From: a virus
Lineage: Duplodnaviria > Caudoviricetes
Virus record (IMG/VR): IMGVR_UViG_2588253904_000003
Coordinates: 1 to 64,000 of that record
Reading direction: 5' to 3' (one strand)
DNA: 64,000 nucleotides
The notes below the pieces were generated by a model. It made no database searches. It saw only the letters and a program-made list of their open reading frames with translations, and was not told the origin of the DNA. This document shows positions 21,580 to 54,686 of the stretch, piece after piece. The stretch's first letter is position 1; each line of letters opens with the position of its first letter. The translations under genes were made by a program, and so were the position numbers.

Positions 21580-21868
21580 ATAAAATTGTGCCCATCTCCT
21601 CCTTGTACGGTATTTGTGCCCCTAACCGCATAATGGTATGGGTATGAAATGCACCTCTGCACCTTCTTTTCAGCTCCCTTCCGATTTCTGCACCATGCAA
21701 GCAGCGTACACCCACCCAAAACAAGCAAAAACCACCTCTCTGAGCACATGAGAGGCGGCAAGGTCATTTACACTTTTTTCAAAGTGACGGTCATCCACTC
21801 CTTCCTCTACCTGATACAGATTTCTGCCTTTTACAGCGTACTTTGTCGGATCGTTTATGGTAGTGAAT

Positions 21869-21988
21869 CAGACGGGCACCCGGAGAGCGTTGGAGCAACT
21901 GTTGTTGTTGGCATTGCCATTGTTGTTGACATTGCAGGCATTGGTAGAATTGCCCGCACACACAGACAGCAGCCACCAGTTGGCCCGG
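21869..21988 (-). ncRNA. DGR template repeat (TR)
   Basis: 120 bp with 12 AAY codons; differs from both VRs only at coding-strand adenines. Confidence 0.95.
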
Positions 21989-22020: not shown

Positions 22021-22428
22021 TTATTTTCTTTTAACTATTTTCGTGTTGTCCTTCCAATTCTTCATCTTTCCCTCTTCCTTCAGCATTAAATTCAGGAGCG
22101 GATCAAATCGGTTCCAATCCACCGGCAAAGTAGTGGCCAGGTAATTTATGAGATCATAAATATCCCGCAAGGTGTCAATGGCCTCCTGGGCCTTTGCCTT
22201 CCTCTTCTCCACTAATTCCTCCGTGGTGCTCCATATTCTGTTAGCTGCCCGGATCTGAGTATAGAGCTTGTGGCACAGCGCACACATTGGCTTTGCAAAT
22301 ATATCCCGCCACCCTTTAGGCACTATATTGGTATTCCATACCAACCTTGTGGCCTCTGCTCTTATTTCCTCCGCAAGATCCAACACATCCAATTTCGAGG
22401 CGCTCCTGAGCCTTGCCAATACACTCAT
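22021..22428 (-). CDS. avd: DGR accessory variability determinant (Avd-like four-helix protein)
   Basis: 135 aa basic helical protein (IRAANRIW) between the target and TR/RT. Confidence 0.8.
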   Translation of the reverse strand: MSVLARLRSASKLDVLDLAEEIRAEATRLVWNTNIVPKGWRDIFAKPMCALCHKLYTQIRAANRIWSTTEELVEKRKAKAQEAIDTLRDIYDLINYLATTLPVDWNRFDPLLNLMLKEEGKMKNWKDNTKIVKRK

Positions 22429-22478: not shown

Positions 22479-22490
22479 ATTGATCCATGA

Positions 22491-39949: not shown

Positions 39950-41217
39950 TAGTGAATCCCTAATTTCTTTTTTTCTCTTATTTTCGCTTTTTTGTTCATT
40001 ATTTCGTCAGATATTGCATACCTGGTACAGTCAAGAAAATGGTTGTCTTTATCAGGGTATGATCCTTTGAAATTTCCGTTTTTATCCTTTTCCAGTTCAT
40101 ATGAGGAAAATTCACGGGCTGCATTCGGGCACCTCACCGGATCAATAACAATATAATCCAAATCATTGGCCAGGTAATTGATCCCAAAATCAACGGATCC
40201 GGGCCCCTTTTTTGCCGGGTACACCCTCAGGCCTAACTCATTGAAGGAGGATATGGAGCGGGGTTCCTCGCTGTCTGCTATGATGATCTTGTTATCAGGA
40301 TTTAGCTTCTTAATCTCCTCCACAGCCTTCCGGGTTTTTAGGTTCACCTGGTAGATCTCAGCAAAGATGTAAAGCCGCCTCTGCTTCTTATTCAGGTGCA
40401 TTCTTCCAAATGCAAGCGGATCCGCCGCAAAACCAAAATCCAGGCCTTGCTTAATCTTATCAAAGATCGCTATCTCTTCATCCGTGATCTCCCTCAGAAT
40501 CACATTATCAAATACTTTTCCACCGGTTCCAGTAGCCTCTCCCAGGTACTCATGCCGGTATGCCATTCTTTTCCGCTTTTTGAGCTCTTCAGCCTCAATG
40601 AAAAATTGCTCTCCCAACCAACTCCTGGGCACTGTCAAATAGGTGGAATGGCTGCACAGCGTATCCTCCCGCACCTGAAGCACATCCTGATTTACCCATG
40701 AATTGAGGCTCTTTGGCGGGTTCCATGTGTAAAATACCACATACTTATCACCGCCACGCATTAAGGACTGGTTTATTTTTCTTTCATCTTCATCCCCTTC
40801 AAACTCAGCCCTTTCCTCATACCATATGTATTTAAAATAGCCCTTCCTCAGTTTGATTGACTTGGACTTGTTAGGATCATCACAGCCCCTAAATACAATC
40901 CTTTGCCCTGTTGGCTTATAGGTTAGCCTCAGGGGGGAGAGGGTTATTTTCCATAAGTGGCTTACTTCCAGGGCATCTATGGCCCACAAAAGCTGCTCAA
41001 AAACGCTCTCAGCCAGGGTATTGCCCACCTTCCTGAAACAAGCGGCATTCGCATTGGGATCCTGCATCATGCCGTAAATTATTTCCAGGCTCACAAATGA
41101 GGATTTAGTGGAGCCTCTGCCTCCGTATAGCTTATAGTGGGTATGTTTACCCTCCAAAATATCCCAATGAATATCATAGAATTGTGGTGCAATGAGATCA
41201 GATAGTCTAATCTCCAT
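39946..41217 (-). CDS. terL: Terminase large subunit (PBSX type)
   Basis: GGRGSTKS Walker A, WYEE, GLDFG, DNHFLDCTRY. Confidence 0.95.
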   Translation of the reverse strand: MEIRLSDLIAPQFYDIHWDILEGKHTHYKLYGGRGSTKSSFVSLEIIYGMMQDPNANAACFRKVGNTLAESVFEQLLWAIDALEVSHLWKITLSPLRLTYKPTGQRIVFRGCDDPNKSKSIKLRKGYFKYIWYEERAEFEGDEDERKINQSLMRGGDKYVVFYTWNPPKSLNSWVNQDVLQVREDTLCSHSTYLTVPRSWLGEQFFIEAEELKKRKRMAYRHEYLGEATGTGGKVFDNVILREITDEEIAIFDKIKQGLDFGFAADPLAFGRMHLNKKQRRLYIFAEIYQVNLKTRKAVEEIKKLNPDNKIIIADSEEPRSISSFNELGLRVYPAKKGPGSVDFGINYLANDLDYIVIDPVRCPNAAREFSSYELEKDKNGNFKGSYPDKDNHFLDCTRYAISDEIMNKKAKIREKKKLGIHY

Positions 41218-41656
41218 TCGGTGCCCTTGGTATATCGTTTATAATGGTGACGGGCTCTAATTTCCCGGTGATCTCCTGCTTATCCACAAATAGCCGGTAT
41301 CTTTTTCCCAATAGCTCTGCCGCCTTGGTTCTGTCCTGAAGGGAAGGATCCAAATCAAATTGATCCCGCTCCTCTCCTCTCATTACCCTTGTGAGATATT
41401 GCAGCACCTCCTCAGCGCTTGCCACCCTTTTTTCTTCCAGTTCTGCAAGCCGCAAATCTATATATTCTTTTAGGTAAGGTTTTGTCAGGTTTTCGCTTCC
41501 CATGGCTTTTGCCGTTTTTTCAGAATATCCGGCCAGTTTTGCGGCCTCCGTGGCATTCAGCGTGGTAATGTAATGATCACAGAATGCCGCTTGCTTTTCG
41601 CTCATTAGCCTCTTCAGTTCCTTCATTCTCTCCATCTGCTGCCCTTCCATGCTCAT
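41207..41656 (-). CDS. terS: Terminase small subunit
   Basis: NATEAAKLAGYSEKTA...ENL.KP...KAAELLGK. Confidence 0.9.
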   Translation of the reverse strand: MSMEGQQMERMKELKRLMSEKQAAFCDHYITTLNATEAAKLAGYSEKTAKAMGSENLTKPYLKEYIDLRLAELEEKRVASAEEVLQYLTRVMRGEERDQFDLDPSLQDRTKAAELLGKRYRLFVDKQEITGKLEPVTIINDIPRAPNGD

Positions 41657-41942
41657 TCACTTCCTTCCACTTGTCTGCCAGGTATTTCAGCAGCTTCACC
41701 TTACTGAAGAAAACCTCTCCATCCCGGTTCGGGTGCTCTTCCCATAAAATCAACTTTGTGCATAGCCGCCCTTGGCTCTCTGAATAAAATTGCTGAGTAT
41801 TTATCTTGTATACAATGCCCTGCTGCCTCAGGGCCTTCAGTAAATTATTGATTTTCCCTTGTACGTTCACCCTTCCCCCTCCTTTGCACACGAAAAAGGC
41901 ACCCACGCACAGAGGCGGGATGCCCTTTCCTTCAGGTTTCAA
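41577..41942 (-). CDS. Hypothetical protein (true start probably further downstream)
   Basis: ORF upstream of terS. Confidence 0.45.
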   Translation of the reverse strand: MKPEGKGIPPLCVGAFFVCKGGGRVNVQGKINNLLKALRQQGIVYKINTQQFYSESQGRLCTKLILWEEHPNRDGEVFFSKVKLLKYLADKWKEVNEHGRAADGENEGTEEANERKASGIL

Positions 41943-42018
41943 TTCATAAGGGGATAAGCCAACAAATTTTCACCTGATAGCATTATAGATCATTTAAAAT
42001 GAGAATTGTGAGAAACTT

Positions 42019-42477
42019 TCATTTTTTTCTCTTTTTCTTTTCCGGGTGTTCCTTCAGGTACTTAGTGAGCAGCTTCTCCGGGTATGTCCGATCACAGTTC
42101 ATGGCGGCGGCCACTTTATCCCAGGAGAGCCCCTCTTCATACCTCAGGCTTATAATTCTCCGGATCCTGCTGTCATTTATGCTCTTTATGTACTGAGATA
42201 TTTTAAACTCTGCATCCACCGCCTGCTGCCGCCGCTTCAGCAAAAGGAGCTCACTTTCTGTCAACTCCCTCCGGCGCTTCCGGCTTCCTTTATTGTCTAC
42301 CCCGGTTATTGTCTTGGTTGTGCGTACATACGGAAAATCGGGCATGGAAGCCTGCACTCTATCTGTCACTTTTCCCACCCTTTGCTCCTGCATTTTTTCA
42401 ACCTTGGCATCCAACTCCTGGATCTCTTTCCTGAGATCCAATAATTGCTCTAACTCACTTTTAGTCACCCTCAGCAC
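42019..42477 (-). CDS. RinA/ArpU-like late transcription activator
   Basis: RRIISLRYEEGLSWDKVA; position just before the packaging genes. Confidence 0.75.
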   Translation of the reverse strand: MLRVTKSELEQLLDLRKEIQELDAKVEKMQEQRVGKVTDRVQASMPDFPYVRTTKTITGVDNKGSRKRRRELTESELLLLKRRQQAVDAEFKISQYIKSINDSRIRRIISLRYEEGLSWDKVAAAMNCDRTYPEKLLTKYLKEHPEKKKRKK

Positions 42478-42480
42478 CTC

Positions 42481-42861
42481 CTAATTGAACGGGAGCCCTT
42501 CATATTCTTCAGGCGCTTCCATGTAGCCGCCTGCTGCCGGGCCGGTGTTCCCCTGCTTCCCGTCACAGAATGTAAAGCCTTCACAGATAAACTCTGTATA
42601 ATATATCTTGTTTCCATTCTTTTCATAGGAGCCGCTTTCTGCCCTGGCACAAATTCCGATCCTCATGCCTCTCTTCAGGTGCTTCTCAACAAATTCACCT
42701 CTGCCGCCCAATGCTTTGAAGGTGAGAAAATCTGCCGCCCGCTCCTTTGTCGGTCTGTCTACTGCCAGGGTAAACCTTGCCACACATACCGGCTTTTCAC
42801 CCTGGCTATATCTCACTTCCGGATCCCTTGTGAGCCTCCCTATGAAATTACAGCTATTCAT
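42481..42861 (-). CDS. ssb: Single-stranded DNA-binding protein
   Basis: GRLTRDPEVRY...FTLAVDR...LPFN. Confidence 0.92.
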   Translation of the reverse strand: MNSCNFIGRLTRDPEVRYSQGEKPVCVARFTLAVDRPTKERAADFLTFKALGGRGEFVEKHLKRGMRIGICARAESGSYEKNGNKIYYTEFICEGFTFCDGKQGNTGPAAGGYMEAPEEYEGLPFN

Positions 42862-43273
42862 TGCCCACTTCCTCCTCTCTTATAACTTTTTCCTCTTTCA
42901 CATTACTCAGAGGAATACAAAAAGTGCCCTGAGGTTCCCATTCCTTCCAGTGCTCCTCAAATTCTTCAAAAGAATCGTACAAGCACATGCCCGCCTCTGT
43001 TTCTGTTTTATACATGGTTTCCATCACGGCTCTTTCCGATTCTTCCGGCCAACTGTAAAGGTGCCATGATTCGTGATTGTCATAATCCCACAATGAGAGG
43101 AGCAGGGTGTGGCCATCTATTGGCCACCCGGTTCCGCTCACCTTCCCCTCAATAATTTTGGGCATATAGTTCCGCATAGTCATACCCCCTTGATCTTGGT
43201 TGCTATCATATCCGCTGTATGAGTATAGAGCACATTCGGGCACCGTTTCACAGCTTCCGTGTAAAACTTCCAC
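42854..43273 (-). CDS. Hypothetical protein
   Basis: ORF in the early operon; start uncertain. Confidence 0.5.
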   Translation of the reverse strand: MEVLHGSCETVPECALYSYSGYDSNQDQGGMTMRNYMPKIIEGKVSGTGWPIDGHTLLLSLWDYDNHESWHLYSWPEESERAVMETMYKTETEAGMCLYDSFEEFEEHWKEWEPQGTFCIPLSNVKEEKVIREEEVGNE

Positions 43274-43755
43274 TCTTTACTGTCTGTAAAAGCTCCCATG
43301 TGATACCGGATACAGAGCTTTTCTTCCACCGTGAGATCAATGTGCCCCATGAGCATGATCAGGCTCTTATCTCCATGCCCTGGCCACAGCGCCTCCTCAT
43401 TCCATACCGCCTGCCCTGGCCCATATACCGGCCCGCCGCCCTGGTCTACTGATACAATCTCCTGCTGTATCACATAATCATCCATTTTACACACATCATG
43501 CAGCATACCCACCACGGCGGGGCTCTCTTTCCTCTGCCACTTCAGGCCCAATCTATCAGTAAGCATGATCAGCTCATGTGTTACCTGAAGGCTGTGATCG
43601 AATAGTGAGCCCTCATAGGAAGCATGGTGCTTCATGGAAGCCGGGGCCGTATAATACCCCACTTCCTCCAACCAATCCAGGAGCCTGCTGCCGCCCACAT
43701 TCTCAAAAAACTGCTGCATGATAATCTTTTTACTTTCCATTTTCAGCTCTTCCAA
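43180..43755 (-). CDS. HD-domain hydrolase
   Basis: APAS.KHH...HS...LHDVCK...HG...YHMG...AD. Confidence 0.85.
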   Translation of the reverse strand: MEELKMESKKIIMQQFFENVGGSRLLDWLEEVGYYTAPASMKHHASYEGSLFDHSLQVTHELIMLTDRLGLKWQRKESPAVVGMLHDVCKMDDYVIQQEIVSVDQGGGPVYGPGQAVWNEEALWPGHGDKSLIMLMGHIDLTVEEKLCIRYHMGAFTDSKEWKFYTEAVKRCPNVLYTHTADMIATKIKGV

Positions 43756-43776
43756 TTTCTTCCCTCCTATTTCTTC

Positions 43777-44223
43777 TCAGTCAATGCCTTGGCCACCGCT
43801 ATGAATAGCGCTATCAGAATCATAAGCACCAGGGCCGCCAATACAATCAGGCACCCGGCCCCTATCATTTTCAGAATCGTCCACATGATTTCCATTTCGC
43901 TCTCCTCCTCTCATAAATTCTGCCGCCGCCATGATCTCCCTTCTCAGTTCTTCCATGCCTGCCGCCGCATTTAAAGCCGCCTCATGGACTTGGCGGGCCA
44001 TTTCCTTCAACCCTTCTCCTGCTGCCCTCTGCACCTCTCTCAGGCGCTCATGGAGCAGCTCAGGCCAGTGCTCTGCCCACCATGCCTCATACTGCTCCGG
44101 GTTCATTCCATATATTTTTTTGAATTGCTTTCTTTTCTGCCTCCTATTCAATGGCCGCCTCCCTTCTTGGATCCATGAAGCGCTCCCTCTGCTCCCTGAG
44201 GAGCTTTTGCATTTTCTCCTCAA
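43777..44223 (-). CDS. Hypothetical protein
   Basis: ORF in the early operon. Confidence 0.4.
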   Translation of the reverse strand: MRRKCKSSSGSRGSASWIQEGRRPLNRRQKRKQFKKIYGMNPEQYEAWWAEHWPELLHERLREVQRAAGEGLKEMARQVHEAALNAAAGMEELRREIMAAAEFMRGGERNGNHVDDSENDRGRVPDCIGGPGAYDSDSAIHSGGQGID

Positions 44224-44614
44224 ACCTATGGCCCAATACCTTGCAATCAGGAGAGGCGCTGAAGGAAATGCTCAGGCCTCCATGCTCAGGATCGCCGGTG
44301 TCAAAATTGATTAAATACCCACATTCCTCCTTATCATATTCCACAGTACCAGTGAGCCACCGCCTGCCATCCTCCCAATCCCGCACCTTTACCACATCAC
44401 CCTCATAGATCTCATGGCCTTCCATATCCTTCCGGCCAATTTGAAACATGATACAGCCGGGCCCCATTCGGATCATGCCCTCCCATCTCATATTCCTCAG
44501 ATCAATTCCGAACACTACCCCATCCCGGTTCAGCAGATAACGGAAAGTATTCTCTGTTACGTCCTCCGGCATGAGCATTTTGCCATCCTGCCATATTCTG
44601 AATTTATGCCCCAT
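44144..44614 (-). CDS. YopX family protein
   Basis: KFRIW...G.KD..G.EIYEGDVV...VLG. Confidence 0.75.
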   Translation of the reverse strand: MGHKFRIWQDGKMLMPEDVTENTFRYLLNRDGVVFGIDLRNMRWEGMIRMGPGCIMFQIGRKDMEGHEIYEGDVVKVRDWEDGRRWLTGTVEYDKEECGYLINFDTGDPEHGGLSISFSASPDCKVLGHRFEEKMQKLLREQRERFMDPRREAAIE

Positions 44615-45392
44615 GTTGCCTCCTGCTGCCGGGCTTCAACTTTTCAGGCCATTCCTGGATCAATGGCTCTCCCCACACATCTGATAGACTATCTTTCATA
44701 AATACCGGCTTTTTGTTTTCCCTGCATAACTTCACTATATCCTCTATCCACTCTCTTTCCGGTATGGCCTTCCCTTTTCTGTTTCCGGTTTCTGCTCCGA
44801 TAATTACCCAATCAATTTGCCTAAAGAGTATATTGTGCTTTTCAGGCTGAAGATCTTCCAGTATTGGCTCCATGCTTACAAAAGTGTTAGCCCCTGCCGG
44901 TAAATTATTAAAAAGGTGTGCCTCACTTTCTTTTGTTATGCTTACTCCGTACCACATATTTTCACAGAGAGGTACATGGTATTGACAGTATCTCTTTACA
45001 TTTTTGGTTAGAAATAAATAATTGTGTTGTGTGGCCCTCTCACATGCCTCAAATACTGCATCTATCCACACATCCGGCACCCAATCCCCAAACAGATCCG
45101 CCATTGAGCACACAAATATATTGCGGCCTCTCTTCTTTTCATAATCACTCAGCCTTTTTATGTGTAATGTTGGTGTGAATTTTTCCGGGTATGGATTAGA
45201 CGTTTTATAGGCCACCTCCACACATAACTCACCATTCCGGCCCTTTACCGTCTTTATGTCCGATCCGTCAATTCTGAGAAAATCTCCAAATCTTGCGGCC
45301 ATCCTTCTTGCATAACAATACTTGCAATCATGGTAACAACCTGTGACCGGGTTCCAGGTACTTTCTGCCCATTCTATCCTTGTTTTTTCCAT
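44604..45392 (-). CDS. DUF5131 (phage Gp37/Gp68-like) protein
   Basis: IEW...TWNPVTGC..DC.YCYA...FVCSMADLF. Confidence 0.85.
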   Translation of the reverse strand: MEKTRIEWAESTWNPVTGCYHDCKYCYARRMAARFGDFLRIDGSDIKTVKGRNGELCVEVAYKTSNPYPEKFTPTLHIKRLSDYEKKRGRNIFVCSMADLFGDWVPDVWIDAVFEACERATQHNYLFLTKNVKRYCQYHVPLCENMWYGVSITKESEAHLFNNLPAGANTFVSMEPILEDLQPEKHNILFRQIDWVIIGAETGNRKGKAIPEREWIEDIVKLCRENKKPVFMKDSLSDVWGEPLIQEWPEKLKPGSRRQHGA

Positions 45393-45401
45393 TTCTGCCT
45401 C

Positions 45402-46145
45402 CTATCTGTAAAAATTGTGATTGCCTACTGTCTTTATGTATTCCAAATTTTCAGAGTGCTAGGTGTTCTCCCCATTGTATACAGCTTCAAAATATAGGGC
45501 CCCTTCACTTTCATCCCATTTATCAATGAGCACCATATCCAGGGCGGCCCAACACTCTGCATTAGGCTCCACCCGGTCAAACCGGCCATTTTCTACCGGT
45601 GTAAACTGCCCATCCTCAAAAATTACCTCCTCTATGGTATCCGGGAAGGCGCTGCTTTCTTCTCTATTCAGCACCACCCGGATCACCATTGCCTTCCCTT
45701 CTATGCACTCACCCTCTGCTTCAGCCATTGCAAGGCGGGCCAAAAGGTACTCATTGCGGGAATTTCCGGATCCTGATCGGGTTTCCTGAATAGGCTCCTG
45801 CTGTGCCCTCTCAGGCCCCGTGGCCTTATGAGGGAGCTCTCCGGCCTCCGTTTCCTGCTGAATCTCTTCCACTGGCACCTCCACCGGCTCCTCTGCTGCC
45901 ATTATTTTGCATATTATGGCCGCCGCAATCAGAATGGCCGCAAATATTACTGCTGCCCTCCTGGCCGCTCTCAGCCTCTTCCTCCGGATCCTCCGCTTTT
46001 TCTTCGCATATGCTACACGCAAAGAATGGCTCCCGGCTTCCCTTAATGAAAAAGCCTTTGCATTTCCCGCTTGCGTCCTTCTCTGCCCTCTTGCATTTCT
46101 CTCCCAGGAGCGGCTCTCCCGGACTTGAATCGGGTAACTTTTCAT
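45402..46145 (-). pseudogene. SleB/CwlJ-like cell wall hydrolase with premature TAG
   Basis: LARLAMAEAEGE...VVLNR..S..FPDTI.EVI..GQF...GALYF; TAG at 45461-45459 is followed in frame by HSENLEYIKTVGNHNFYR*. Confidence 0.75.
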
Positions 46146-46372
46146 TGCAAATCCCCTCCAATGCTTTCACTACTGCTGCCCCCTTCAAATTTTGTGAGCT
46201 CCATCTCCTGCTTCTCCTCATTAAACTGGATACTCAGGAAGGTTTTGCATTGCAGGCAGCGCCCGGCTCCCTGGTTGATCCCCATTTCCATGAATATACT
46301 TTTGCAGATCCACATCTCCCTCCCGCACTCCGGGCATATTCCTTTATACCTTGGCCTTTTGTCCTGCTCCAT
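46142..46372 (-). CDS. Small Zn-ribbon protein
   Basis: CPEC...CLQC. Confidence 0.55.
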   Translation of the reverse strand: MEQDKRPRYKGICPECGREMWICKSIFMEMGINQGAGRCLQCKTFLSIQFNEEKQEMELTKFEGGSSSESIGGDLQ

Positions 46373-46384
46373 TGTTTGCGCCTC

Positions 46385-46597
46385 TCAATCTATTTCTTTC
46401 TTATCAACTGTTAAAGTCGGGTTTACCAGTTTGATCCACTCTATTGGTATTTTCCCATTATTTTCTCTCAGCAGATCATTGATCCCTTGTGCTGCTTCCT
46501 CTTTTGTCACATACTGCTCAAATGAAAATTCTATTCTTACCGCTTTAGACACATAATCATCCAAAACTACCGGCACCGGATTTTTATATTTTCCCAA
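46385..46597 (-). CDS. Small hypothetical protein
   Basis: AGGAGG RBS. Confidence 0.5.
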   Translation of the reverse strand: MGKYKNPVPVVLDDYVSKAVRIEFSFEQYVTKEEAAQGINDLLRENNGKIPIEWIKLVNPTLTVDKKEID

Positions 46598-46636
46598 TTT
46601 TATTCCTCCTTAAAATTTGCTTGCTTATCCCCTTAT

Positions 46637-46667
46637 AATCCCACCGCCGCAAAAGGCGGCGGGATTG
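46637..46667 (-). promoter_or_regulatory. GC-rich hairpin downstream of VR2
   Basis: CCGCCGC-CTTTT-GCGGCGG; shares ATCAATCCCGCC with the VR1 downstream region. Confidence 0.75.
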
Positions 46668-46674
46668 ATATTGA

Positions 46675-47298
46675 TTATTTTTTGATACTGAAGCAGACGG
46701 GCACCCGGAGAGCGTAGGAGCAACTGCTGCCGTTGGCAATGCCATCGTAGTTGACATTGCAGGCATGGGTAGAATGGCCCGCACACACAGACAGCAGCCA
46801 CCAGTCGGCCCTCTCTCCATCCTTGTCAAATTTCACCCGGTTCCTGGAATCCTTGAAGAGCTCAAACTGCTGCCCCTCCTCCACTTCAGAGGCCCAACTA
46901 TCGCCAAATACTTCAAATTCAGACGGGAGCCACAGCTTCAGCATGAAGCGCTCCTCTTTCCCTTCCACAATCTGAAGGCACTCCCTCTCACTGATCACCG
47001 CCTTCAGCTCCTCAGGCAGGATCTCCCACACTCCCTCATTCAGATACCGGCATAAATCCGATTCTTTAAAGCCTCCGGTGTTTCTCCCGTTCCCATTCCA
47101 CACCACACGCTCAGCCAGGAGATCCTTGCTTACAAATTTCACCTCTTCCTCTGTAATATCTGCCACCACATACACCATTTTCTGCCCGGTGAGCAGATTA
47201 TCAGAGATTTCATCCCCTACTTTCAAAGAGCCTGCTGCTGCCAGTTCCTTCACCTTGGCCCAATTTGTTTCCTCTGTTCTTTTCCTTGTGATTTCCAT
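46675..47298 (-). CDS. DGR target 2 (remote): stand-alone DUF6273/CLec-like protein in the early region
   Basis: AAGGAGG RBS before ATG 47298; KLWLPSEFEVFG resembles target 1 KLWIPCEYEVFG; VR2 at the 3' end. Confidence 0.88.
   Translation of the reverse strand: MEITRKRTEETNWAKVKELAAAGSLKVGDEISDNLLTGQKMVYVVADITEEEVKFVSKDLLAERVVWNGNGRNTGGFKESDLCRYLNEGVWEILPEELKAVISERECLQIVEGKEERFMLKLWLPSEFEVFGDSWASEVEEGQQFELFKDSRNRVKFDKDGERADWWLLSVCAGHSTHACNVNYDGIANGSSCSYALRVPVCFSIKK
46694..46811 (-). repeat. DGR variable repeat VR2
   Basis: 10 mismatches to TR over 118 bp, all at TR adenines. Confidence 0.95.
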
Positions 47299-47329
47299 AT
47301 GTTTCTTATCCTCCTTATATTTTCTCAGG

Positions 47330-47644
47330 CTATTGGCCGCCTGCTGCCTTCTGTAATTCTTCCAGGGTTTTCTCTGCTTCCTTATCCTCTGCCCCTGCTG
47401 CCACAAGCGCAATATGGATCGCCCTCAGCTTTGCCTCTCCAATCCCTTTTATTTTCCGTATTTCTTCCAGTGCCGTGGGGAGATTGAAGGAAGAAGCCGC
47501 CTGCTGCCGCCCGGCCTCATATCCTGCTGTATATCCCCGCTCATAATATCCGGCAATATGGCTCTCCATGGTGCTGTGATCCATTTTCCGGATCCGGTCA
47601 AATTCTTTCCGGTTTACCTCAACCGCCTTTTTCTTCTTGGCCAT
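47330..47644 (-). CDS. Hypothetical protein with HhH-like motif
   Basis: KIKGIGEAK. Confidence 0.55.
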   Translation of the reverse strand: MAKKKKAVEVNRKEFDRIRKMDHSTMESHIAGYYERGYTAGYEAGRQQAASSFNLPTALEEIRKIKGIGEAKLRAIHIALVAAGAEDKEAEKTLEELQKAAGGQ

Positions 47645-47656
47645 CCCGCTGCCCTC

Positions 47657-49039
47657 CTATGCAAATTTGATCTGCTCTTCGCTACAATCGATCCTCATGT
47701 GTGGTATCCGCTCCCCTATTTTCAAGTATCCGCAGTTTGCTTCTACCAATTTCTGAGCCATAATTGGCACCACACTATTTCCGATTCTCGCCACCTGCTC
47801 CTTCACCGGATACCGCTTGAAATTTATATCACGGTCAATTATGTAATCAGGTGGGAAGCCCTGCATGATCTTCAGCTCCTCCGGCTTCAGCATTCTCAAA
47901 AATATATCATTCAGAACATACTTCTCACCGTTCAGCTCCACAATGGCGCTCACCAGGCCAAAACGATCCTTTGTCGTAATCGTTCCCAATGGGTTGCTCA
48001 ATGTCTGCCCGCACCCGGCCCCGTAATATTTGATCAAAAATGCAGTTATCAGGCCAAAATGCCCCGGTGAGGTTGTGATTGTGTGAAGCGGCTCATTGCA
48101 CCCCTGCCCGATCCCTGATTTATAGAATTTTGTTACAAAGGCCGTTACTAGGCCATACCGGTTGCTTGTGTCAATGGTTTTTATGGGCTCTTTGAGTGTC
48201 TGCCCCCTTGCATCCCCTTCTTTCTGCTCCCCGTGATACTGAATCAGAAAAGCATAGGCTTCACTGTTTTTCACTTCATAGGGATGCGGATTATTCACCA
48301 CATACTTCAGAAAACCATTGGCAATCCGCTTCATTGTGGCCTCTGCAAGCGGCTTTTTCCGGTCAAATATGCTTTTTCCCAAATCCGACCAATCAATATA
48401 TTTCCCGCATTCCTCCCAGGGCTTCAAGCCGCCTGCTGCCCCTTTTGCATGTGTGGGCTCCGGCCAAATTATTTCCCGGCCATCCCTCCTGAAAATTGCA
48501 TACCATCGCCGCCTCGTTGTGGGGGCTCCATAATCTGCCGCCACCAGTTCCCTACTGTCAAACTGATAGCCTAACCCTTTCATGGCATTTATAAACTTTT
48601 GATAGTCCTCACCTTCCCGCTCCTTTATCGGGCGGCCATTGTCATCCAGTGGCCCCCATTTCTGAATCTCTTCCACATTCTCCATAATAACCACATCCGG
48701 CCTGATTGCTTTTGCATGTTTATATACTGCCCATGGCAGAATCCTCAGCCCCTTTTTTCGTGGTTGTGATCCCTTTGCTTTGCTGTGACTTGTGCAGTCA
48801 GGGCTTGCCCACATAAGGGAAACATGCCGGCCATTTACATACTTTTTCAGATTTACCTCAAAAATATCCTCTGTCAGGTGTGTGGTGGTGGGATGGTTTA
48901 CTGTGTGCATTCTGATCGCCTCCGGATCGTGATTGATTGCTATATCCACAGTTCTCCCTAATGCCATTTCAATTCCCACGCTTGCACCGCCACCGCCTGC
49001 AAATGCGTCAACTAACAGATCTCTCATTCTTCTCACCAT
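47657..49039 (-). CDS. C5-cytosine DNA methyltransferase
   Basis: FAGGGG, SPDC, ENV, R.R, IGNSV motifs. Confidence 0.92.
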   Translation of the reverse strand: MVRRMRDLLVDAFAGGGGASVGIEMALGRTVDIAINHDPEAIRMHTVNHPTTTHLTEDIFEVNLKKYVNGRHVSLMWASPDCTSHSKAKGSQPRKKGLRILPWAVYKHAKAIRPDVVIMENVEEIQKWGPLDDNGRPIKEREGEDYQKFINAMKGLGYQFDSRELVAADYGAPTTRRRWYAIFRRDGREIIWPEPTHAKGAAGGLKPWEECGKYIDWSDLGKSIFDRKKPLAEATMKRIANGFLKYVVNNPHPYEVKNSEAYAFLIQYHGEQKEGDARGQTLKEPIKTIDTSNRYGLVTAFVTKFYKSGIGQGCNEPLHTITTSPGHFGLITAFLIKYYGAGCGQTLSNPLGTITTKDRFGLVSAIVELNGEKYVLNDIFLRMLKPEELKIMQGFPPDYIIDRDINFKRYPVKEQVARIGNSVVPIMAQKLVEANCGYLKIGERIPHMRIDCSEEQIKFA

Positions 49040-49625
49040 CTAATTTTCCGACTTCATTCCCCCAACAATCCCAACCGCTGATATTTTGCCGGGCAAAAAG
49101 CTCTATGTAATTCAGATCATCACCCATGAGCTCCTTGATCTTCTTTCGCACAATTCCCGGCTTTTGGGAATGCTCTTTTATAGTTGCCTCTATAATCTGG
49201 CTTACACTATTGCTCTTTCTGCTTGGCTTCCCCCTTACACCAATAAAGCAGGCCTCTGTGTTCCCTCTAGTCCACCGGCCCAAACCGAAAAACTTTTGCC
49301 CGTTTTTCTTATTCAGTTTTATCCACTGAAAACCTATGGTTTTATACTTGAATCCCCATGCCTCCATGAGCTCAATGCCTTCCTTCAGCATTGGGTATGT
49401 GATCCACATGAAAATTACACAATCCTTTGCCGCCAATTCCTTCACGGGAAGATCCTTTATATCCTGAATTTTCATGGTGTCATAATGGAGAGCACATGCT
49501 CCATTGCATTTTCTATCCTGGTATCTCCACGGCGGATCTGCATAAATCACATCATACTTTTTCGCCGGGGAGAAAATATCTATTTCAGCCATGCCTTTCC
49601 TCCTATCTGAGCCAGGTTTCAGCAA
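49008..49625 (-). CDS. MT-A70 family adenine methyltransferase
   Basis: YADPPW...HSQKP...IELFAR...WGNE. Confidence 0.9.
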   Translation of the reverse strand: MLKPGSDRRKGMAEIDIFSPAKKYDVIYADPPWRYQDRKCNGACALHYDTMKIQDIKDLPVKELAAKDCVIFMWITYPMLKEGIELMEAWGFKYKTIGFQWIKLNKKNGQKFFGLGRWTRGNTEACFIGVRGKPSRKSNSVSQIIEATIKEHSQKPGIVRKKIKELMGDDLNYIELFARQNISGWDCWGNEVGKLDGEKNERSVS

Positions 49626-49875
49626 TCACCGGATCCTCTCCCTCTGTCCGGGTGAGCCGTGTTGTGAATCCTGCTGCCCTTATATCTTTTCTTATTTCCT
49701 GAAGCGTTTCCCTCTTAATGAGCGTATTTGTGGGCAGATTCCTGGCCCCTTCCCACACCCTGGCCACATAGGCATCCGGGTAGTCTTTGGGATTTTTATA
49801 CACCGTTATCACTGGAAAACTCAGATCCGAAAAATCCACCTGCCTCAGGCTCTCCATGAGCTTCTCCTGCTGCAT
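49603..49875 (-). CDS. Hypothetical protein
   Basis: P.DYP..YVAR...DPVI.ETW. Confidence 0.55.
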   Translation of the reverse strand: MQQEKLMESLRQVDFSDLSFPVITVYKNPKDYPDAYVARVWEGARNLPTNTLIKRETLQEIRKDIRAAGFTTRLTRTEGEDPVIAETWLR

Positions 49876-50218
49876 CCTCTTCCTCCTCTAAATAGTTCTT
49901 TTCAAATTCCTGCATCCATTTCTCATGCCCATACTTGGCTTCAAAAGCCCTCTGTGCAATCTGCTTCAGCTTCCGATCCACCTCTGCATTATTGTGGGGA
50001 GCCTCCGGCCCATACTCATGGTGACGCTCAGCGCACATATAACCCCACAGCCCATAATGCTCTGCTTTCTTCCTGAAGGCACCAAACCGGCCATATATAA
50101 AATGGTGCTTATGCAGGCCGGTGTGCTTCAGCTCTCCATAATATCCACGCTTTTCAGCTTCCTCCCTGCACAAATAGCACTCCCTGATCCGGGTGTCCTG
50201 AATGATACTCTTAGCCAT
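49796..50218 (-). CDS. HNH-like Zn-binding phage protein
   Basis: CYLC...HKHH...C..HH...F.KNYL. Confidence 0.6.
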   Translation of the reverse strand: MAKSIIQDTRIRECYLCREEAEKRGYYGELKHTGLHKHHFIYGRFGAFRKKAEHYGLWGYMCAERHHEYGPEAPHNNAEVDRKLKQIAQRAFEAKYGHEKWMQEFEKNYLEEEEDAAGEAHGEPEAGGFFGSEFSSDNGV

Positions 50219-50750
50219 TGAGCACCTCCCTGAGTTCCTTCACAATCTCCTCCTCCGCATAGGCCGCCTGATCTTCTGAATAAATCACCGCCATATTTGC
50301 TATGGTGATAGGAATGCCCCACTCCTTGGCCTTCAGGAGCTCTCCTTTCATTCCCTCTGAAATGTTGGTGAAGATCCTCAGCTCCCCGCAATCCTTCAGG
50401 AGCTCCAATCCAATCCTCATGCCTGCTGCCCGCTGTGATTTCACATCATCATTGAGCACCTGGGCATAGAACAAATGAGGGCAAATGGGGATCTTTCCCT
50501 CTTCAATCACTGTCATGCAAAAGAATTTTGCAAGCTCCAAATTTGTGGCCTTATCTCCCCTGCTGCCATATTGTGAGCATATATAAACCCTCTCCATGCT
50601 CTCCTCTTTTTCCAGTTCCCTGAGCTTCTCCTCTGCCTCATGGTTGCTCATGCTGTACTTGGGCCCTCTCAGCCTCAGCAGCTCCTCAGCCGCCTGCCCT
50701 GCTGCCCTCATGGTTTTCTCTGTCATTGCTTCTCTCCTTCCTACCAACAC
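50211..50750 (-). CDS. Nucleoside deoxyribosyltransferase-like (DUF4406-type) protein
   Basis: VYICS...PICPHL...LL..C...ISEGM..E...A...GIP. Confidence 0.6.
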   Translation of the reverse strand: MLVGRREAMTEKTMRAAGQAAEELLRLRGPKYSMSNHEAEEKLRELEKEESMERVYICSQYGSRGDKATNLELAKFFCMTVIEEGKIPICPHLFYAQVLNDDVKSQRAAGMRIGLELLKDCGELRIFTNISEGMKGELLKAKEWGIPITIANMAVIYSEDQAAYAEEEIVKELREVLNG

Positions 50751-51001
50751 GGCCTCACCGTGTAGGGATCCATAAAATCCAATTCATCCGGATCGGCATA
50801 TGCTATTTGCACCCGGATTCCTGCCCGCACACATTCCACAATGGAATGTACCTCTGTAATGCTCCGGTAATTGTCAGCAATGGCCTCCATCACCGCATCG
50901 GCCACCTTCTCTGCTGCCTCCGTTACCTTCTCCCGCTCTCCTTCCATATTGGCCAGTACCGCCTCCATGGTTCTCCTTCTTACTTCTCTGTATTCTTCCA
51001 A
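50741..51001 (-). CDS. Hypothetical protein
   Basis: 86 aa coupled ORF. Confidence 0.5.
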   Translation of the reverse strand: MEEYREVRRRTMEAVLANMEGEREKVTEAAEKVADAVMEAIADNYRSITEVHSIVECVRAGIRVQIAYADPDELDFMDPYTVRPCW

Positions 51002-51456
51002 CTCTCCAACTCCTTCCTGAGTTCTGATTGCATTACATTCTCATATTCGTGGTGATCGTCTTTCAGGGTGTAGGTGTGGCCCTTCCCCTTTTCAATCAGC
51101 ATTTTCCACAGCTCAGCATTCTTCACCGGCTTCCCCTTTGCATTGATCCACCCGCTCTCCTGCCATTCCTTTGGCCACTCCTGCTGCATGGAGATCAAAA
51201 TGTGGCTGCACTTGGTAAATACTAGGGCTCTGCATGGTTTTTTCAGAATGTAAAAGGCATTGATCATAGCCATAAGGTTCCCCTGGGTTTCTGTACCCTC
51301 TTTCACATGCACAAATCCCTGCCGGGTATCCAGGCGATCTCCTCTTTTGCATTCCACCAACCACATGGCCACCCCATCCCTCCTGGCCGGGCCTCTCCAT
51401 GTGCTCTCAATGAATATGCTCACCTCATGCATCCCCTGAATCACCTCCTGGATCAA
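50980..51456 (-). CDS. RNase H-like protein
   Basis: W..SGWINAKGKPVKNAELW (RNase HI basic protrusion). Confidence 0.7.
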   Translation of the reverse strand: MIQEVIQGMHEVSIFIESTWRGPARRDGVAMWLVECKRGDRLDTRQGFVHVKEGTETQGNLMAMINAFYILKKPCRALVFTKCSHILISMQQEWPKEWQESGWINAKGKPVKNAELWKMLIEKGKGHTYTLKDDHHEYENVMQSELRKELESWKNTEK

Positions 51457-52207
51457 TCTTTCGCATGGTGTAGTGCTGATATGGGAGCCCCGTCACCGGG
51501 TTTTCACCATTCACAAGAGAATCCTTCACAATGTACCAACCTTTTTCCGGCTTTGGCTCCTTCCTCCACCTCCTGCTGTGAATCACTTCCTTTTGCGGCT
51601 GAGGTATGATCAGATTCCTACTCCTGGAATATGAGCAGCCCTCCTCCTCTTCCTTGCTTTCTTTTTTCACTATGTACTCAGCAAGATCCTCAAACTCCCC
51701 ATCCTCATACAGCGGGTGGAAACTCTTGGATCCATATTGCCAAAACTTCAGCACCAGTTTTTTGGTGTTCAAATTCTGATCCGCTATATCCTCAATGATC
51801 AGGTGGTGGTGACATGCTCCTTGCTTCCCTCTCTCCGTGACAGCTATCCACTTGAAGGGGATCCCCGCCTTCTTGTATACCTTCCTCATATCAGACAAGA
51901 ATTTTCTCAGTTGCTTCTTTGCCTCCTTAAAGGAGCCCGGCCTCTGCTCTTTCTTATAGCTCAGAATTAAATGCCAATCACCCTCATGGAAATTGGCCAG
52001 GATCAACCTCTGCACCTTTTTCTCTCTGTTCGTCTTATTCTGCCGATCTATGTCCTCAGGTGTCCTCTTTCTTTTTGGCCCCCTCTTCACTCCTGGGGCC
52101 CCATAATTACCCGGATAGTATTTTGCAATCTGCTTCACCCATCCCAGGTCATATATTTTTTTCCAGTACAAACCGTATATCACCCCCATCTTTAATATCT
52201 TGATCAA
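51425..52207 (-). CDS. HUH rolling-circle Rep-like initiator
   Basis: HLILSY (motif I), E.G...HHHLII (HUH), LAEYIVKE-like motif III, SRNL. Confidence 0.7.
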   Translation of the reverse strand: MIKILKMGVIYGLYWKKIYDLGWVKQIAKYYPGNYGAPGVKRGPKRKRTPEDIDRQNKTNREKKVQRLILANFHEGDWHLILSYKKEQRPGSFKEAKKQLRKFLSDMRKVYKKAGIPFKWIAVTERGKQGACHHHLIIEDIADQNLNTKKLVLKFWQYGSKSFHPLYEDGEFEDLAEYIVKKESKEEEEGCSYSRSRNLIIPQPQKEVIHSRRWRKEPKPEKGWYIVKDSLVNGENPVTGLPYQHYTMRKIDPGGDSGDA

Positions 52208-52251
52208 GTGTTTAACAAGGCCGAAAAGCCTTGATTTTAGCGCCTTTTCAC

Positions 52252-52350
52252 TTGACTTGGATGCCCAAAAGTGATATACTGTTTTTAGGTGTAGTATGTC
52301 CTTAGGGCATATGTCGGGAGCAGATTTCTCAGATCTGCTCCCATTTTTTT
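52252..52350 (+). ncRNA. Predicted short antisense RNA in the rep leader
   Basis: TTGACT-N17-TATACT with extended -10 TG; terminator GGGAGCAGAT-TTCTCAG-ATCTGCTCCC-ATTTTTTT. Confidence 0.6.
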
Positions 52351-52516
52351 ATGTAAACCATTTACATCACCGCCACCTTCCTGGCAGGCATGGCCGGATC
52401 CGGATGGTTCTCCTTCTCCTGGCTCTCCACCCTTTTCCGGGCCACCTGGATGCAGGCTTTGGTGAAGCGTTCCTCATACCCTTCTGAGAGGGTGATCTTC
52501 ACCTTTACCTCCCGCC

Positions 52517-52681
52517 TCATGCCATGGCCACCTCCTTCTCTGCTTCTTTTGCAAGCTGAATACCAATGATAATGCTTTTAACATGTTGCCTCTCATTGGG
52601 TGACAGCATTCCATAAAGCTCTGCAAATTCCTTTGCATCGTCCATCTCGGTTCTCTGAATCGGTTTCTCTTTCACTTTCAT
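52517..52681 (-). CDS. 54 aa hypothetical protein not in the ORF track
   Basis: GGAGG RBS, MKVKEKPIQRTEMDDAKEFAELY... Confidence 0.5.
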   Translation of the reverse strand: MKVKEKPIQRTEMDDAKEFAELYGMLSPNERQHVKSIIIGIQLAKEAEKEVAMA

Positions 52682-52693
52682 GCCTTTTCCCTC

Positions 52694-53218
52694 CTATCTG
52701 CTCTCTAATAATGGTGTAAAGCTCTTTTCCTGAAGGCCTGCCATCATGGCCCACATTCTCTCTAATCGCTCCATTTCTTCCAGTGTTGGAAGCTCAGCCT
52801 CCTCTCCTGAATCCCCAAAAAGCCGGTGCTTTTGTATGAATGCCTCAAAGAGGAGCTCCTGCTCTTCCTTCAGCAAATCCCGGTAAAACTCAAATTCGAT
52901 CCGGATCTGTATCTCCTGGGCTTTTGTGCATTCCACAATGAGAATACTCCTGGAGCCCTGCCCATGCCTCCGGTGGTACTGCCCTTCTTTGTCATTCCTG
53001 GCCCGGTATACAATTTGAGAGAGCAACCGCCGCTCAAACTCTCCCCGGTATTTGATTTCATACCGGCTCACCCGATCCTCTTCAAGCTCCAACTGATCCA
53101 CCCCATACTTTGCCATGAGTTGCTTCAGTTTCCTCTCTGCTCCTTCCCTCTCTCCTCCCACACCACGCTCTGCAAGGGCCTTCAGCTTTTGCAGGAGAGC
53201 CTTTTGCTTCTCATTCAA
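52694..53218 (-). CDS. DUF2786-like protein
   Basis: KLKALAERG..GE...A...L..LM.KYG. Confidence 0.65.
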   Translation of the reverse strand: MNEKQKALLQKLKALAERGVGGEREGAERKLKQLMAKYGVDQLELEEDRVSRYEIKYRGEFERRLLSQIVYRARNDKEGQYHRRHGQGSRSILIVECTKAQEIQIRIEFEFYRDLLKEEQELLFEAFIQKHRLFGDSGEEAELPTLEEMERLERMWAMMAGLQEKSFTPLLESR

Positions 53219-53741
53219 TCTCTTTCCCTCCTGCTGCCCCTATTGCTTCAAATTCCTCCTGCATTCCTGCGATCAAGCTATCATCTAATGAATTGAGAAG
53301 GGCCACGGCCTCTCCATGCCTTCCTTCAGTGATAAGCTGCACCGCCTTCTCTTCTACCTCTGCCCGGTGATCCATTTCTGCCTGCATACGTTTGATCAGG
53401 CCTATTTTTATATCAATTTTCCCCGTTGCTTCATAAAATGGGAGCCTATTTCCACATACCGGGCACCCTGCACCCGGCTCCACTTTGTAGAGCACCCACT
53501 GATCTCCCTGGGGCGCTTCCTCCTGCCCTTCTTTAGTGCATATTGCCATCACATAATCTCCATTAAAGCTGCCGTTGTGAGAGTATCTGAGAAAATTTCC
53601 TACCTCTGCCAGGCTCAGCTTCCCCTCCTCTTTTTCCAATACCAATATACTGTTATCATGTGCATCCCGATCCCATACCGCCTCAATTTTCTCTGCTATT
53701 ACTTCATTCTTTTTCATCCCCTTATGCCTCCTCAATCTCAA
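53211..53741 (-). CDS. Hypothetical protein
   Basis: Coupled ORF with CPVCG. Confidence 0.5.
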   Translation of the reverse strand: MRLRRHKGMKKNEVIAEKIEAVWDRDAHDNSILVLEKEEGKLSLAEVGNFLRYSHNGSFNGDYVMAICTKEGQEEAPQGDQWVLYKVEPGAGCPVCGNRLPFYEATGKIDIKIGLIKRMQAEMDHRAEVEEKAVQLITEGRHGEAVALLNSLDDSLIAGMQEEFEAIGAAGGKEIE

Positions 53742-54117
53742 TTCTAATTACTCTGTCTGTATATCTGCCCCTTCTCTGCCCTGGCCCGATCCGAAACTCT
53801 AACCCCATATCATTCAGAATGGTTATGGCTCTTCTTTCCTCTTCCTCTGAATATGGATTGAAAAACTTAGATTCCTTCCCGGATACTTCCGGGTATCCTA
53901 AAAGAATATTCAGGGTTTTCCCGTTGTCCTTTGTGTGCTCAAATCCTGCTTTTCTCAGGGCCTCCCTGATTTCATCAACCCTGATCTTCCTGGCCGCCGC
54001 TCTCACCGTTTTCATAAAACTTTTTTCCACTTCCTGGAGCTTGCTTTCATCCACCTTCCTGATTGCGTTCAGGAGCTCCTCAATTTGTTCACTTCTCCTC
54101 ATGGCTCTCCTCCTCAA
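53722..54117 (-). CDS. Hypothetical protein
   Basis: Coupled ORF. Confidence 0.5.
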   Translation of the reverse strand: MRRRAMRRSEQIEELLNAIRKVDESKLQEVEKSFMKTVRAAARKIRVDEIREALRKAGFEHTKDNGKTLNILLGYPEVSGKESKFFNPYSEEEERRAITILNDMGLEFRIGPGQRRGRYTDRVIRIEIEEA

Positions 54118-54686
54118 TCCATTGCCTTTTCAAGAATTTGCTTCAGCTCTTCTCGGTGTGTAAAAAGCATTTTCTTACTTGTTTCTTTGTCGATCTCCCC
54201 ATTCGTATAGGTTGTAATGCTATTGAGCAGCTCTTCCATGGCCTCAAATTCCTTTTTGTATGCCTTATCAAATGCCGCCTCTAATTCTGCATTTTCCGGC
54301 TCAGCCTGGTATGCTTCATCCGCTTTATTGGCGGCGGCCTCCAACTCCTCAAATTTTTCCAGTTTCTTCAGCAATCCCTTCCCGCTTTTCTTCTCCCGTT
54401 CAAATCTGAAAAGAAAATCCTCTCCATCGTTGGTACAGCATCCGAAATAGTCATCTGTGCGGGTGAAATGGTACTCCACCCCATAAAACTGCTTTACCGC
54501 CAATTTGAAGATCTCAAATTGTGCAAATAACCGATCAATGTCTTTTCTCAGCCTCTTGTATTTCTCCGGCTCCTGCCACTGGCTTGTATGGCTCTTTTCT
54601 TCAAGGTAAAAATCTAATGCCTTTACCGTTTCAACCATCTGCCCGCCAAACTCCGTTTTTTCAAATCTTGCTTTCACTAATTTCAT
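54114..54686 (-). CDS. First early gene, hypothetical
   Basis: GGAGG RBS; divergent from the repressor. Confidence 0.6.
   Translation of the reverse strand: MKLVKARFEKTEFGGQMVETVKALDFYLEEKSHTSQWQEPEKYKRLRKDIDRLFAQFEIFKLAVKQFYGVEYHFTRTDDYFGCCTNDGEDFLFRFEREKKSGKGLLKKLEKFEELEAAANKADEAYQAEPENAELEAAFDKAYKKEFEAMEELLNSITTYTNGEIDKETSKKMLFTHREELKQILEKAMD

Follow-up and report, generated by a model that had tools for sequence, protein, structure and literature searches.

A Second, Non-Adjacent Target of a Single Diversity-Generating Retroelement in the Early Operon of a Siphovirus-Type Prophage

Introduction

The stretch of DNA analysed here, hereafter called the window, comprises positions 1 to 64,000 of the IMG/VR virus record IMGVR_UViG_2588253904_000003 (Duplodnaviria; Caudoviricetes). 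It holds a prophage of ~41 kb (roughly 16.8 to 57.6 kb of the window), nearly all genes of which lie on the minus strand. The prophage carries one diversity-generating retroelement (DGR), with a single template repeat (TR) and two variable repeats (VRs). VR1 lies in target 1, the last gene of the tail block, and VR2 ends a small gene of the early operon, target 2, which is the subject of this study.

To our knowledge, no natural system other than DGRs directs hypermutation to particular proteins in prokaryotes and their viruses, and phage DGRs have been explained almost entirely as devices for tail-fibre tropism switching. In the established mechanism, adenine-specific errors are made during reverse transcription of TR RNA, and the resulting cDNA replaces the VR with the help of the initiation of mutagenic homing (IMH) sequence and a downstream hairpin. 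The prototype, the DGR of phage BPP-1 with its target Mtd, combines adenine-specific TR/VR mutagenesis, Avd and a reverse transcriptase (RT) with an IMH at the VR 3' end that is followed by a hairpin or cruciform. Its VR is displayed on a C-type-lectin fold, and its single, adjacent target is the trimeric tail-fibre tip, which has extra N-terminal domains.

Template repeat, variable repeats and homing signals

The TR (21864..21986, minus strand) contains 28 adenines, 12 AAY codons (Y being a pyrimidine) and the IMH* GTCTGATTC. VR1 (22505..22627, minus strand) is part of target 1, while VR2 (46689..46811, minus strand) has its IMH-like 3' end GTCTGCTTC at 46690-46698. A repeat search of the window returned three in-register copies, at 21847-21986, 22488-22627 and 46672-46811.

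Aligned over 123 nt, TR and VR2 show 11 mismatches and TR and VR1 show 14; all of them (11/11 and 14/14) fall at TR adenines. Under a hypergeometric model with mismatches random over the 123 positions, the chance of such adenine-only differences is 1.4e-8 for VR2 and 4.2e-11 for VR1. These counts bear out the claim, made earlier in a sequence-only reading of the window, of a second, non-adjacent target of a single DGR; the 10 mismatches in 118 bp reported there are the same count minus the IMH position. The two VRs have eight mutated positions in common, mostly filled by different bases; a further six are mutated in VR1 only and three in VR2 only, and the variable adenines all occupy codon position 1 or 2 of AAY, ACC or AGT codons. 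At non-adenine positions VR2 and TR are 100% identical over the 123 nt, the flanking coding DNA is unalignable, and a 28-nt adenine-free core occurs in only three copies in the 4.57-Mb genome. Outside the repeat, the DNA of the two target genes is not alignable and their proteins are 41% identical over 182 residues, mostly in the VR, indicating that the TR has kept the repeat uniform during the divergence of the remaining parts of both genes.

Both VRs carry GTCTGCTTC where the TR reads GTCTGATTC, a difference that is present in three lineages, and both are followed by TAATCA..ATCAATCCCGCC and then, at the same offset, by a GC stem. The hairpin after VR2 (46644..46662) has seven G-C pairs and a 5-nt loop and is preceded by ATCAATCCC, as is the hairpin after VR1 (~22456-22478). 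Since a T-run is missing after the VR2 hairpin on the coding strand, it is no typical terminator. The TR flank contains no hairpin (-4.3 kcal/mol, z +0.64). The homing signals thus appear twice, as had been proposed: GTCTGCTTC and the GC hairpin are found at both VRs and the TR has neither. With its adenine-only TR/VR differences, Avd-like and RT genes, IMH followed by a hairpin and C-type-lectin fold, this DGR resembles that of BPP-1. From the TR transcript the RT, with Avd, would make a cDNA mutagenised at adenines, which would replace VR1 or VR2, each VR bringing its own homing signals in the form of the GC-rich 3' end and the GC hairpin ~30 nt downstream.

Diversification of VR2 in nature

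A protein search for target 2 homologues yielded 98 clusters at 82-100% identity. Of these, 89 (82-94% identity) were aligned, leaving out five 236-aa start-site variants and two forms each of 208 aa and 201 aa. Twelve alignment columns are hypervariable (entropy >2 bits), with 7-14 residue types each, and they coincide exactly with the 12 AAY codons of the TR (target 2 residues 165, 175, 178, 181, 183, 184, 185, 187, 189, 190, 191 and 195). The remaining 195 columns have a mean entropy of 0.20 bits. There are 87 distinct 12-residue VR words among the 89 homologues, and within groups sharing an identical scaffold (residues 1-164; 9, 9, 5, 5 and 5 members plus smaller groups) the VR word differs in every member. 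All residues at the variable columns except one (1067/1068) are among the 15 amino acids that NNY codons can encode.

Two complete related phages extend this picture. In both (G002 and G003), VR2 matches the phage's own TR, unlike the window TR, at non-adenine positions, and VR2-TR mismatches lie at TR adenines in 14/14 and 13/17 cases, respectively. Because VR2 matches each phage's own, different TR, the site must have been overwritten repeatedly in separate lineages. The sequence-only reading had named invariance of VR2 across relatives as the observation that would speak against it; VR2 proves hypervariable among them, so that the reading is not refuted on this count.

These data also bear on the idea that VR2 is a relic, that is, an old duplication of the target 1 C-terminus no longer mutagenised in this prophage. 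The prophage was examined in a single genome copy, and the VR2 of IMG/VR loci L011 and L013 is almost TR-like, both of which would fit a relic. We nevertheless regard it as highly improbable, given the perfect agreement of VR2 and TR at non-adenine positions next to unalignable flanks, the IMH and hairpin that are intact here and decayed in a relative without RT (see below), and the 87 different VR words in 89 close homologues. VR2 is, on this sequence evidence, a real and evidently active remote target of the prophage's single DGR.

The VR2 of L011 and L013, which are identical loci, retains many AAC/AAT codons, which suggests either a recent unmutated homing event or a frozen copy. Contigs from sequencing runs that fall on the VR2 interval include TR and VR1 contigs of related phages, as their loose ends match the flanks of those repeats. 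Contigs covering the target 2 gene at ~95-97% identity occur in two metatranscriptomic libraries; they are no indicator of transcription or its timing.

The target 2 protein

The target 2 gene (46675..47298, minus strand; ATG start after AAGGAGG) encodes a stand-alone DUF6273 protein of 207 aa. The Pfam family DUF6273 (PF19789) matches residues 55-206 with an E value of 1.1e-24 and 87.6 bits, against a gathering cut-off of 23.5. As stated in the sequence-only reading, target 2 lacks the N-terminal part of target 1, which amounts to ~140 aa. Neither a signal peptide nor a transmembrane segment was seen on inspection of its sequence.

An AlphaFold2 model built from a 62-sequence alignment consists of one compact domain (pLDDT 95.2, pTM 0.91) with no extra anchoring domain. 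The strongest match among solved structures is 9qa6, the DUF6273 domain at the N-terminus of the IgA peptidase that Thomasclavelia ramosa secretes (VIA-align Z 18.0, root-mean-square deviation (rmsd) 2.0 Å over 171 residues; Foldseek E 4e-5). It is followed by the C-terminal domain of Legionella Lcl (Z 8.8), Treponema denticola TvpA (2y3c; Z 7.9, rmsd 4.9, 139 aligned residues) and a Bacteroides fimbrial tip protein (Z 7.5), and about forty C-type lectins match at Z 5.2-6.7; BPP-1 Mtd is not among the structural matches listed. The model accordingly assigns target 2 a C-type-lectin fold with the VR in its C-terminal part, the Z values to C-type lectins being middling. TvpA is a cellular lipoprotein and itself a stand-alone DGR target, and target 2 differs from it in being phage-encoded in an early operon and in having no lipobox or signal peptide. 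Among the predicted viral structures of BFVD, 31 match at E <=1e-3, most of them annotated as DUF6273 and some as tail-collar fibre or receptor-binding protein.

The sequence family around target 2 numbers 1564 representatives at E <=1e-3, many of 200-220 aa and others giant multi-repeat proteins. In PHROGs the only match is phrog_21980, to which no function is assigned there, and in NCBIfam there is none. A profile of the homologue alignment found no match among PDB sequences, and tblastn against plasmids gave no match at E 1e-3. The PADLOC models did not match target 2 or its small neighbours, no search having been aimed at anti-defence families.

Tentaclins are DGR targets with Ig domains and an N-terminal VR (PMC10743442). 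Classification of target 2 as a tentaclin was rejected, as it is a 207-aa single domain without an Ig domain and with its VR at the 3' end.

Gene layout of the prophage

Target 2 belongs to the early/middle operon (41207..54686, minus strand), which extends from the divergent repressor region to the small terminase. On the opposite strand lie a serine integrase (56018-57598, plus strand), a TM2-domain protein (55306-55884, plus strand) and an HTH repressor (54778-55287, plus strand); the early operon, which serves replication and modification, is transcribed away from the repressor. It encodes a replication initiator (51425-52207, minus strand), RNase H, a nucleoside deoxyribosyltransferase, MT-A70 (49008-49625, minus strand) and C5 (47657-49039, minus strand) DNA methyltransferases, a small HhH-like protein and target 2. 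These are followed by two small open reading frames (ORFs), a SleB-like hydrolase, DUF5131 and YopX proteins, an HD phosphohydrolase, SSB and a regulator. The target 2 gene thus lies amid replication and modification genes, 5 kb upstream of the small terminase and outside the structural block, and its earlier description as an early-operon gene with methyltransferase and hydrolase neighbours is confirmed by the C5, MT-A70 and SleB-like genes.

Directly upstream of target 2, the HhH-like gene (47330..47644, minus strand) encodes 104 aa with a weak HHH match (phrog_19490). It is also found near target 2 homologues in eight IMG/VR loci, including L008-L011, L013, L043 and L045. Its identification as a homologue of orf42 of Roseburia phage Shimadzu was rejected, since orf42 is a C5-methylase fragment.

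The SleB-like peptidoglycan hydrolase (45459..46145, minus strand) is supported by a Hydrolase_2 match and a weak SleB match. Its translation begins with a very basic N-terminus followed by one hydrophobic helix, read as a membrane anchor. Genes for peptidoglycan cleavage, of the Hydrolase_2, 3D-domain or Slt70-like type, are repeatedly found at a distance of a few genes from the small target, namely in Shimadzu, Toutatis, Dulem virus 34 and many IMG/VR loci. Target 2 was also considered as the targeting subunit of this early hydrolase. This was set aside, since the predicted location of the hydrolase's catalytic domain is on the outer side of the membrane and an export signal is missing from target 2. 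The two genes are only loosely adjacent, at 2 to 7 genes apart. The DUF5131 protein (44604-45392, minus strand) matches the PADLOC candidate defence models PDC-M41B (E 3e-45) and PDC-M30B (3e-43).

The late block comprises small and large terminase, portal, minor and major head proteins, tail terminator, chaperone, a 1193-aa tape measure and two tail proteins. As no sheath gene was found in the prophage and the Shimadzu sheath protein has no match within the window, the tail block is of siphovirus type. Towards low coordinates the layout ends with target 1, the Avd-like gene, TR, RT, holin and endolysin. Target 1 (22491..23450, minus strand) is a 319-aa protein with VR1 in a C-terminal DUF6273 domain. 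The Avd-like accessory gene (22021..22428, minus strand; 135 aa) was assigned by its position between target 1 and TR. It has no match in Pfam, PHROG or NCBIfam, and shows 29% identity over 134 aa to the annotated Avd of Shimadzu in tblastn. The DGR RT (20365..21408, minus strand) matches RVT_1 at E 8e-16 and is 51-52% identical to the Shimadzu DGR RT.

Related systems in gut phages

When phage records were searched by tblastn with target 2, orf43 of Roseburia phage Shimadzu was matched at 44% identity, with 90% of the query covered, and a protein of Dulem virus 34 at 32%. Shimadzu orf43 (LR596903.1 32976-33605; ~209 aa, DUF6273) likewise carries its VR at the C-terminus, with the GTCTGCTTC end and the hairpin CCGCCGCC, and a single TR beside Avd and RT serves both the tail-fibre VR1 and the VR2 of orf43, as in the window. 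The gene is flanked by those for a C5 methyltransferase and Erf, with a cell-wall hydrolase nearby, and its early operon likewise runs away from an integrase, TM2 protein and repressor; in the window, unlike in Shimadzu, the HhH-like gene is inserted between methyltransferase and target 2. Full-length similarity, the same neighbourhood and a VR with a distant TR all indicate that target 2 is an orthologue of orf43.

Shimadzu is a myovirus, in contrast to the siphovirus-type prophage of the window, and their portal, major capsid, large terminase and tail proteins have no detectable similarity. Target 1, on the other hand, shares 55.6% identity with the Shimadzu tail fibre orf22 (L005 17785-19080) across 284 aa. 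As target 1 and RT resemble their Shimadzu counterparts while the structural proteins do not, the DGR cassette and its target appear to move between siphovirus-type and myovirus-type phages.

The two VRs of Shimadzu were described by Cornuault et al., who termed orf43 'of unknown function' (bioRxiv 10.1101/575076). According to the same report, ~2% of virion reads over both VRs carry 10-15 DGR-type mismatches, and both VRs were altered in 5/5 ultravirulent evolved isolates.

The same layout is found in Dulem virus 34, where VR2 lies in a 221-aa DUF6273 protein encoded directly after an adenine methyltransferase, 14.8 kb from the TR. Faecalibacterium phage Toutatis has a second VR gene, gp24 (NC_047915 11505-12152; VR 11932-12035, TR 49076-49179), which resembles target 2 in being a small DUF6273 protein of the early region with a distant TR. 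It lies downstream of two methyltransferases and a peptidoglycan-hydrolase-like 3D-domain protein. Unlike in target 2, its VR is not at the very C-terminus, and target 1 of that phage is a Hoc-like or tentaclin protein; gp24 is too distant to be matched by tblastn with target 2 at E 1e-5. Together with Shimadzu orf43, Toutatis gp24 and the Dulem virus 34 protein, target 2 belongs to a conserved family of small phage proteins. Egorov and Atkinson place gp24 at a distance of 17,480 nt from the TR, class it as a core gene that occurs even in phages without a DGR, and favour receptor binding as its role (bioRxiv 10.1101/2024.10.15.618418).

Large and small DUF6273 targets are also paired in the Faecalibacterium prophages Lelie and CP11 (PMC11792537) and, for each DGR, in phages nd4 and nd12 (PMC10743442). 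The tgt2 proteins of nd4 and nd12 resemble target 2 in their single globular C-lec domain with the VR at the 3' end, and differ in that both targets lie inside the DGR cassette (PMC10743442). Wu et al. described multi-target DGRs and noted that phage-associated DGRs often have a non-adjacent target inside the same prophage (PMC5758913), whereas the metagenome survey of Roux et al., the largest, could by their own account not detect non-adjacent targets (PMC8144416). A second DGR target in the early operon is therefore not new in kind, being already documented in related gut phages: the arrangement noted in the sequence-only reading is preceded by Shimadzu orf43 (10.1101/575076), Toutatis gp24 (10.1101/2024.10.15.618418) and the targets of Wu et al. 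(PMC5758913). In the passages found by literature search, neither a function nor the early-operon placement of early-region DGR targets is discussed; Fig. S2 and Table S1 of the Shimadzu study and the supplementary tables of Wu et al. may list such targets.

Genomic context of small homologues in IMG/VR

Using an alignment of 14 homologues, 59 IMG/VR loci were retrieved, and BLASTP was used to label their ORFs; the reference set consisted of 80 annotated proteins from the window, Shimadzu, Toutatis and Dulem virus 34, and structural genes unrelated to it would escape labelling. The homologue is incomplete in nine loci, long (>260 aa) in seven, which include canonical cassette targets beside Avd and RT, and complete and small in 43. 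Early-module neighbours, namely methyltransferases, replication initiator, SSB, Erf, deoxyribosyltransferase or peptidoglycan hydrolase, lie within 5 kb of the small homologue in 27/43 loci, four of which also have a terminase downstream. In 14/43 the small homologue lies between RT and integrase/repressor, in 2/43 it has no labelled neighbour, and in 0/43 is it found among recognised head or tail genes. The surveyed loci represent a handful of lineages and are not independent, so that these counts describe a pattern and are not a statistic.

The small homologue is not tied to one type of virion. A 70.5%-identical homologue in G002 accompanies the siphovirus-type structural genes of the window, while a 69%-identical homologue in G001 accompanies a sheath, baseplate J and a Shimadzu-like portal, that is, a myovirus-type module. 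No reverse transcriptase was found in G001 or G005 (each 98% complete, CheckV for G001), and both keep the small homologue. In G001 (L004 10001-10690) the former VR retains its GTCTGCTTC end and has lost its downstream hairpin (-1.5 kcal/mol, z +1.3); the hairpin after VR2 is kept in the RT-bearing loci L008 and L012 as well as in Shimadzu and Dulem virus 34. Occurrence in siphovirus-type and myovirus-type backgrounds, and in genomes without RT, implies that the gene travels with the early module and not with the virion type, and that it is retained without a DGR. Locus L065 (7056-10600) contains four paralogues in a head-to-tail tandem array; they are 282-300 aa long, and all of them match the small target.

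These contexts bear on the proposal of target 2 as an accessory adhesin associated with the virion. It would be a second receptor-binding protein, encoded outside the structural block and docked on the particle by its globular surface. As in target 1, variation by the DGR would then widen or shift the binding of host or mucus. Its fold and family are shared with binding proteins of virions and surfaces, one TR is the template for its binding face and for that of a tail protein, published opinion on Toutatis gp24 (bioRxiv 10.1101/2024.10.15.618418) and on the tgt2 proteins (PMC10743442) favours receptor binding, and all five evolved Shimadzu isolates had changed in both VRs (bioRxiv 10.1101/575076). 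On the opposite side stand the absence of small homologues from recognised head or tail genes (0/43), the pairing of close homologues with non-homologous siphovirus-type and myovirus-type structural modules, the missing N-terminal attachment domain, and retention of the gene in G001, which has neither DGR nor target 1. On balance we consider an accessory adhesin a serious but less probable alternative to the non-virion protein favoured below.

The 14 loci with the gene between RT and integrase/repressor raise a different idea. In the 13 of them examined, 15-23 of 18-26 mismatches are at TR adenines, identifying the repeats as VRs of the nearby TR. In L027-L038 and L044, which represent another lineage, the small target is encoded 5.6-6.5 kb downstream of the TR and immediately ahead of an HTH gene and the integrase, a moron-like position. 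Target 2 might leave the cell, exported or released, after expression from the prophage or through lysis, and bind extracellular glycans or proteins of the host, neighbouring microbes or gut mucosa, for example by masking receptors on debris, to the benefit of the lysogen or the progeny phage. Placement next to the lysogeny module in those 14 loci, typical of morons, would suit such a role, as would the surface-exposed hydrolase encoded in the same early operon and the Mushu-type prophage DUF6273 protein, a DGR target reported to be lysogen-expressed and present in vesicle fractions (bioRxiv 10.64898/2026.05.08.723808). Yet the Mushu protein has a different architecture, with Ig domains, target 2 has no signal peptide, and its gene is internal to an early lytic operon, where a scan around it for promoter-like and terminator-like signals gave nothing above background. 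We therefore think a released factor unlikely.

Proposed function of target 2

We favour the view that target 2 is a free, non-virion binding protein, at a probability of roughly one in two. Because target 2 has no export signal, its ligand is slightly more likely to be intracellular than to be a part of the cell envelope encountered after lysis. It would be a compact domain whose C-terminal face is re-randomised at the 12 AAY-coded positions, made from the early operon and absent from the particle, and its variable ligand would probably be a host component. The evidence for its status as a DGR target is strong; that for its non-virion status is moderate and comes from the position of the gene between replication initiator and terminase, among methyltransferases, a placement shared with Shimadzu, Toutatis and Dulem virus 34. 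It also draws on the survey count of 0/43 among recognised head or tail genes, on homologues of 69-71% identity in siphovirus-type and myovirus-type backgrounds, on the single-domain model and on the sequence, in which neither a signal peptide nor a transmembrane segment is visible. An intracellular, anti-defence or host-takeover role, as proposed in the sequence-only reading, is conjecture drawn from gene position and the lack of a signal peptide.

Several observations weigh against this view. DUF6273 domains whose context is known are located outside cells or on virions, as in the secreted IgA peptidase, the tail-collar and receptor-binding proteins of BFVD and the tentaclins, and VR2 shares its template with a tail protein, so that its binding face is built like a surface-recognition site. 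Early placement is not universal, given the 14 loci in which the small target lies downstream of the DGR. Neighbour labels derive from a limited reference set in which unrelated structural genes would go unrecognised, and the many loci fall into few, non-independent lineages. Finally, the authors of the Toutatis study favour a receptor-binding role (bioRxiv 10.1101/2024.10.15.618418).

A more far-reaching and distinctly speculative version is that small early-module DUF6273 proteins act as a phage-side analogue of antibodies: cytoplasmic, made early and carrying a paratope, continually re-randomised by the DGR, with which to neutralise or hijack fast-evolving host factors such as the sensors of defence systems. 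This would account for the gene travelling with the methyltransferase (anti-restriction) cluster and not with the virion type.

The small target is conserved in several gut-phage lineages, lies outside the structural genes, occurs independently of tail type and is kept without a DGR, and these four traits point to a second use of programmed diversification. What is new here is that small homologues are never found among recognised head or tail genes, that they accompany both types of structural module and that they persist without a reverse transcriptase. The window adds one more clean example, which gives a testable pattern in combination with the survey and by itself does not answer the question of function.

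Other repeats in the window

Two further repeat families were noted. The tape-measure gene contains a 33-nt periodic repeat family (27453-28112, minus strand) with eight copies of a 132-nt unit at 61-100% identity. Outside the prophage, four tandem copies of a 53-nt unit, 74-100% alike, occupy 7516-7728 (plus strand), just upstream of the ORF at 7718-8521 and extending into its start.

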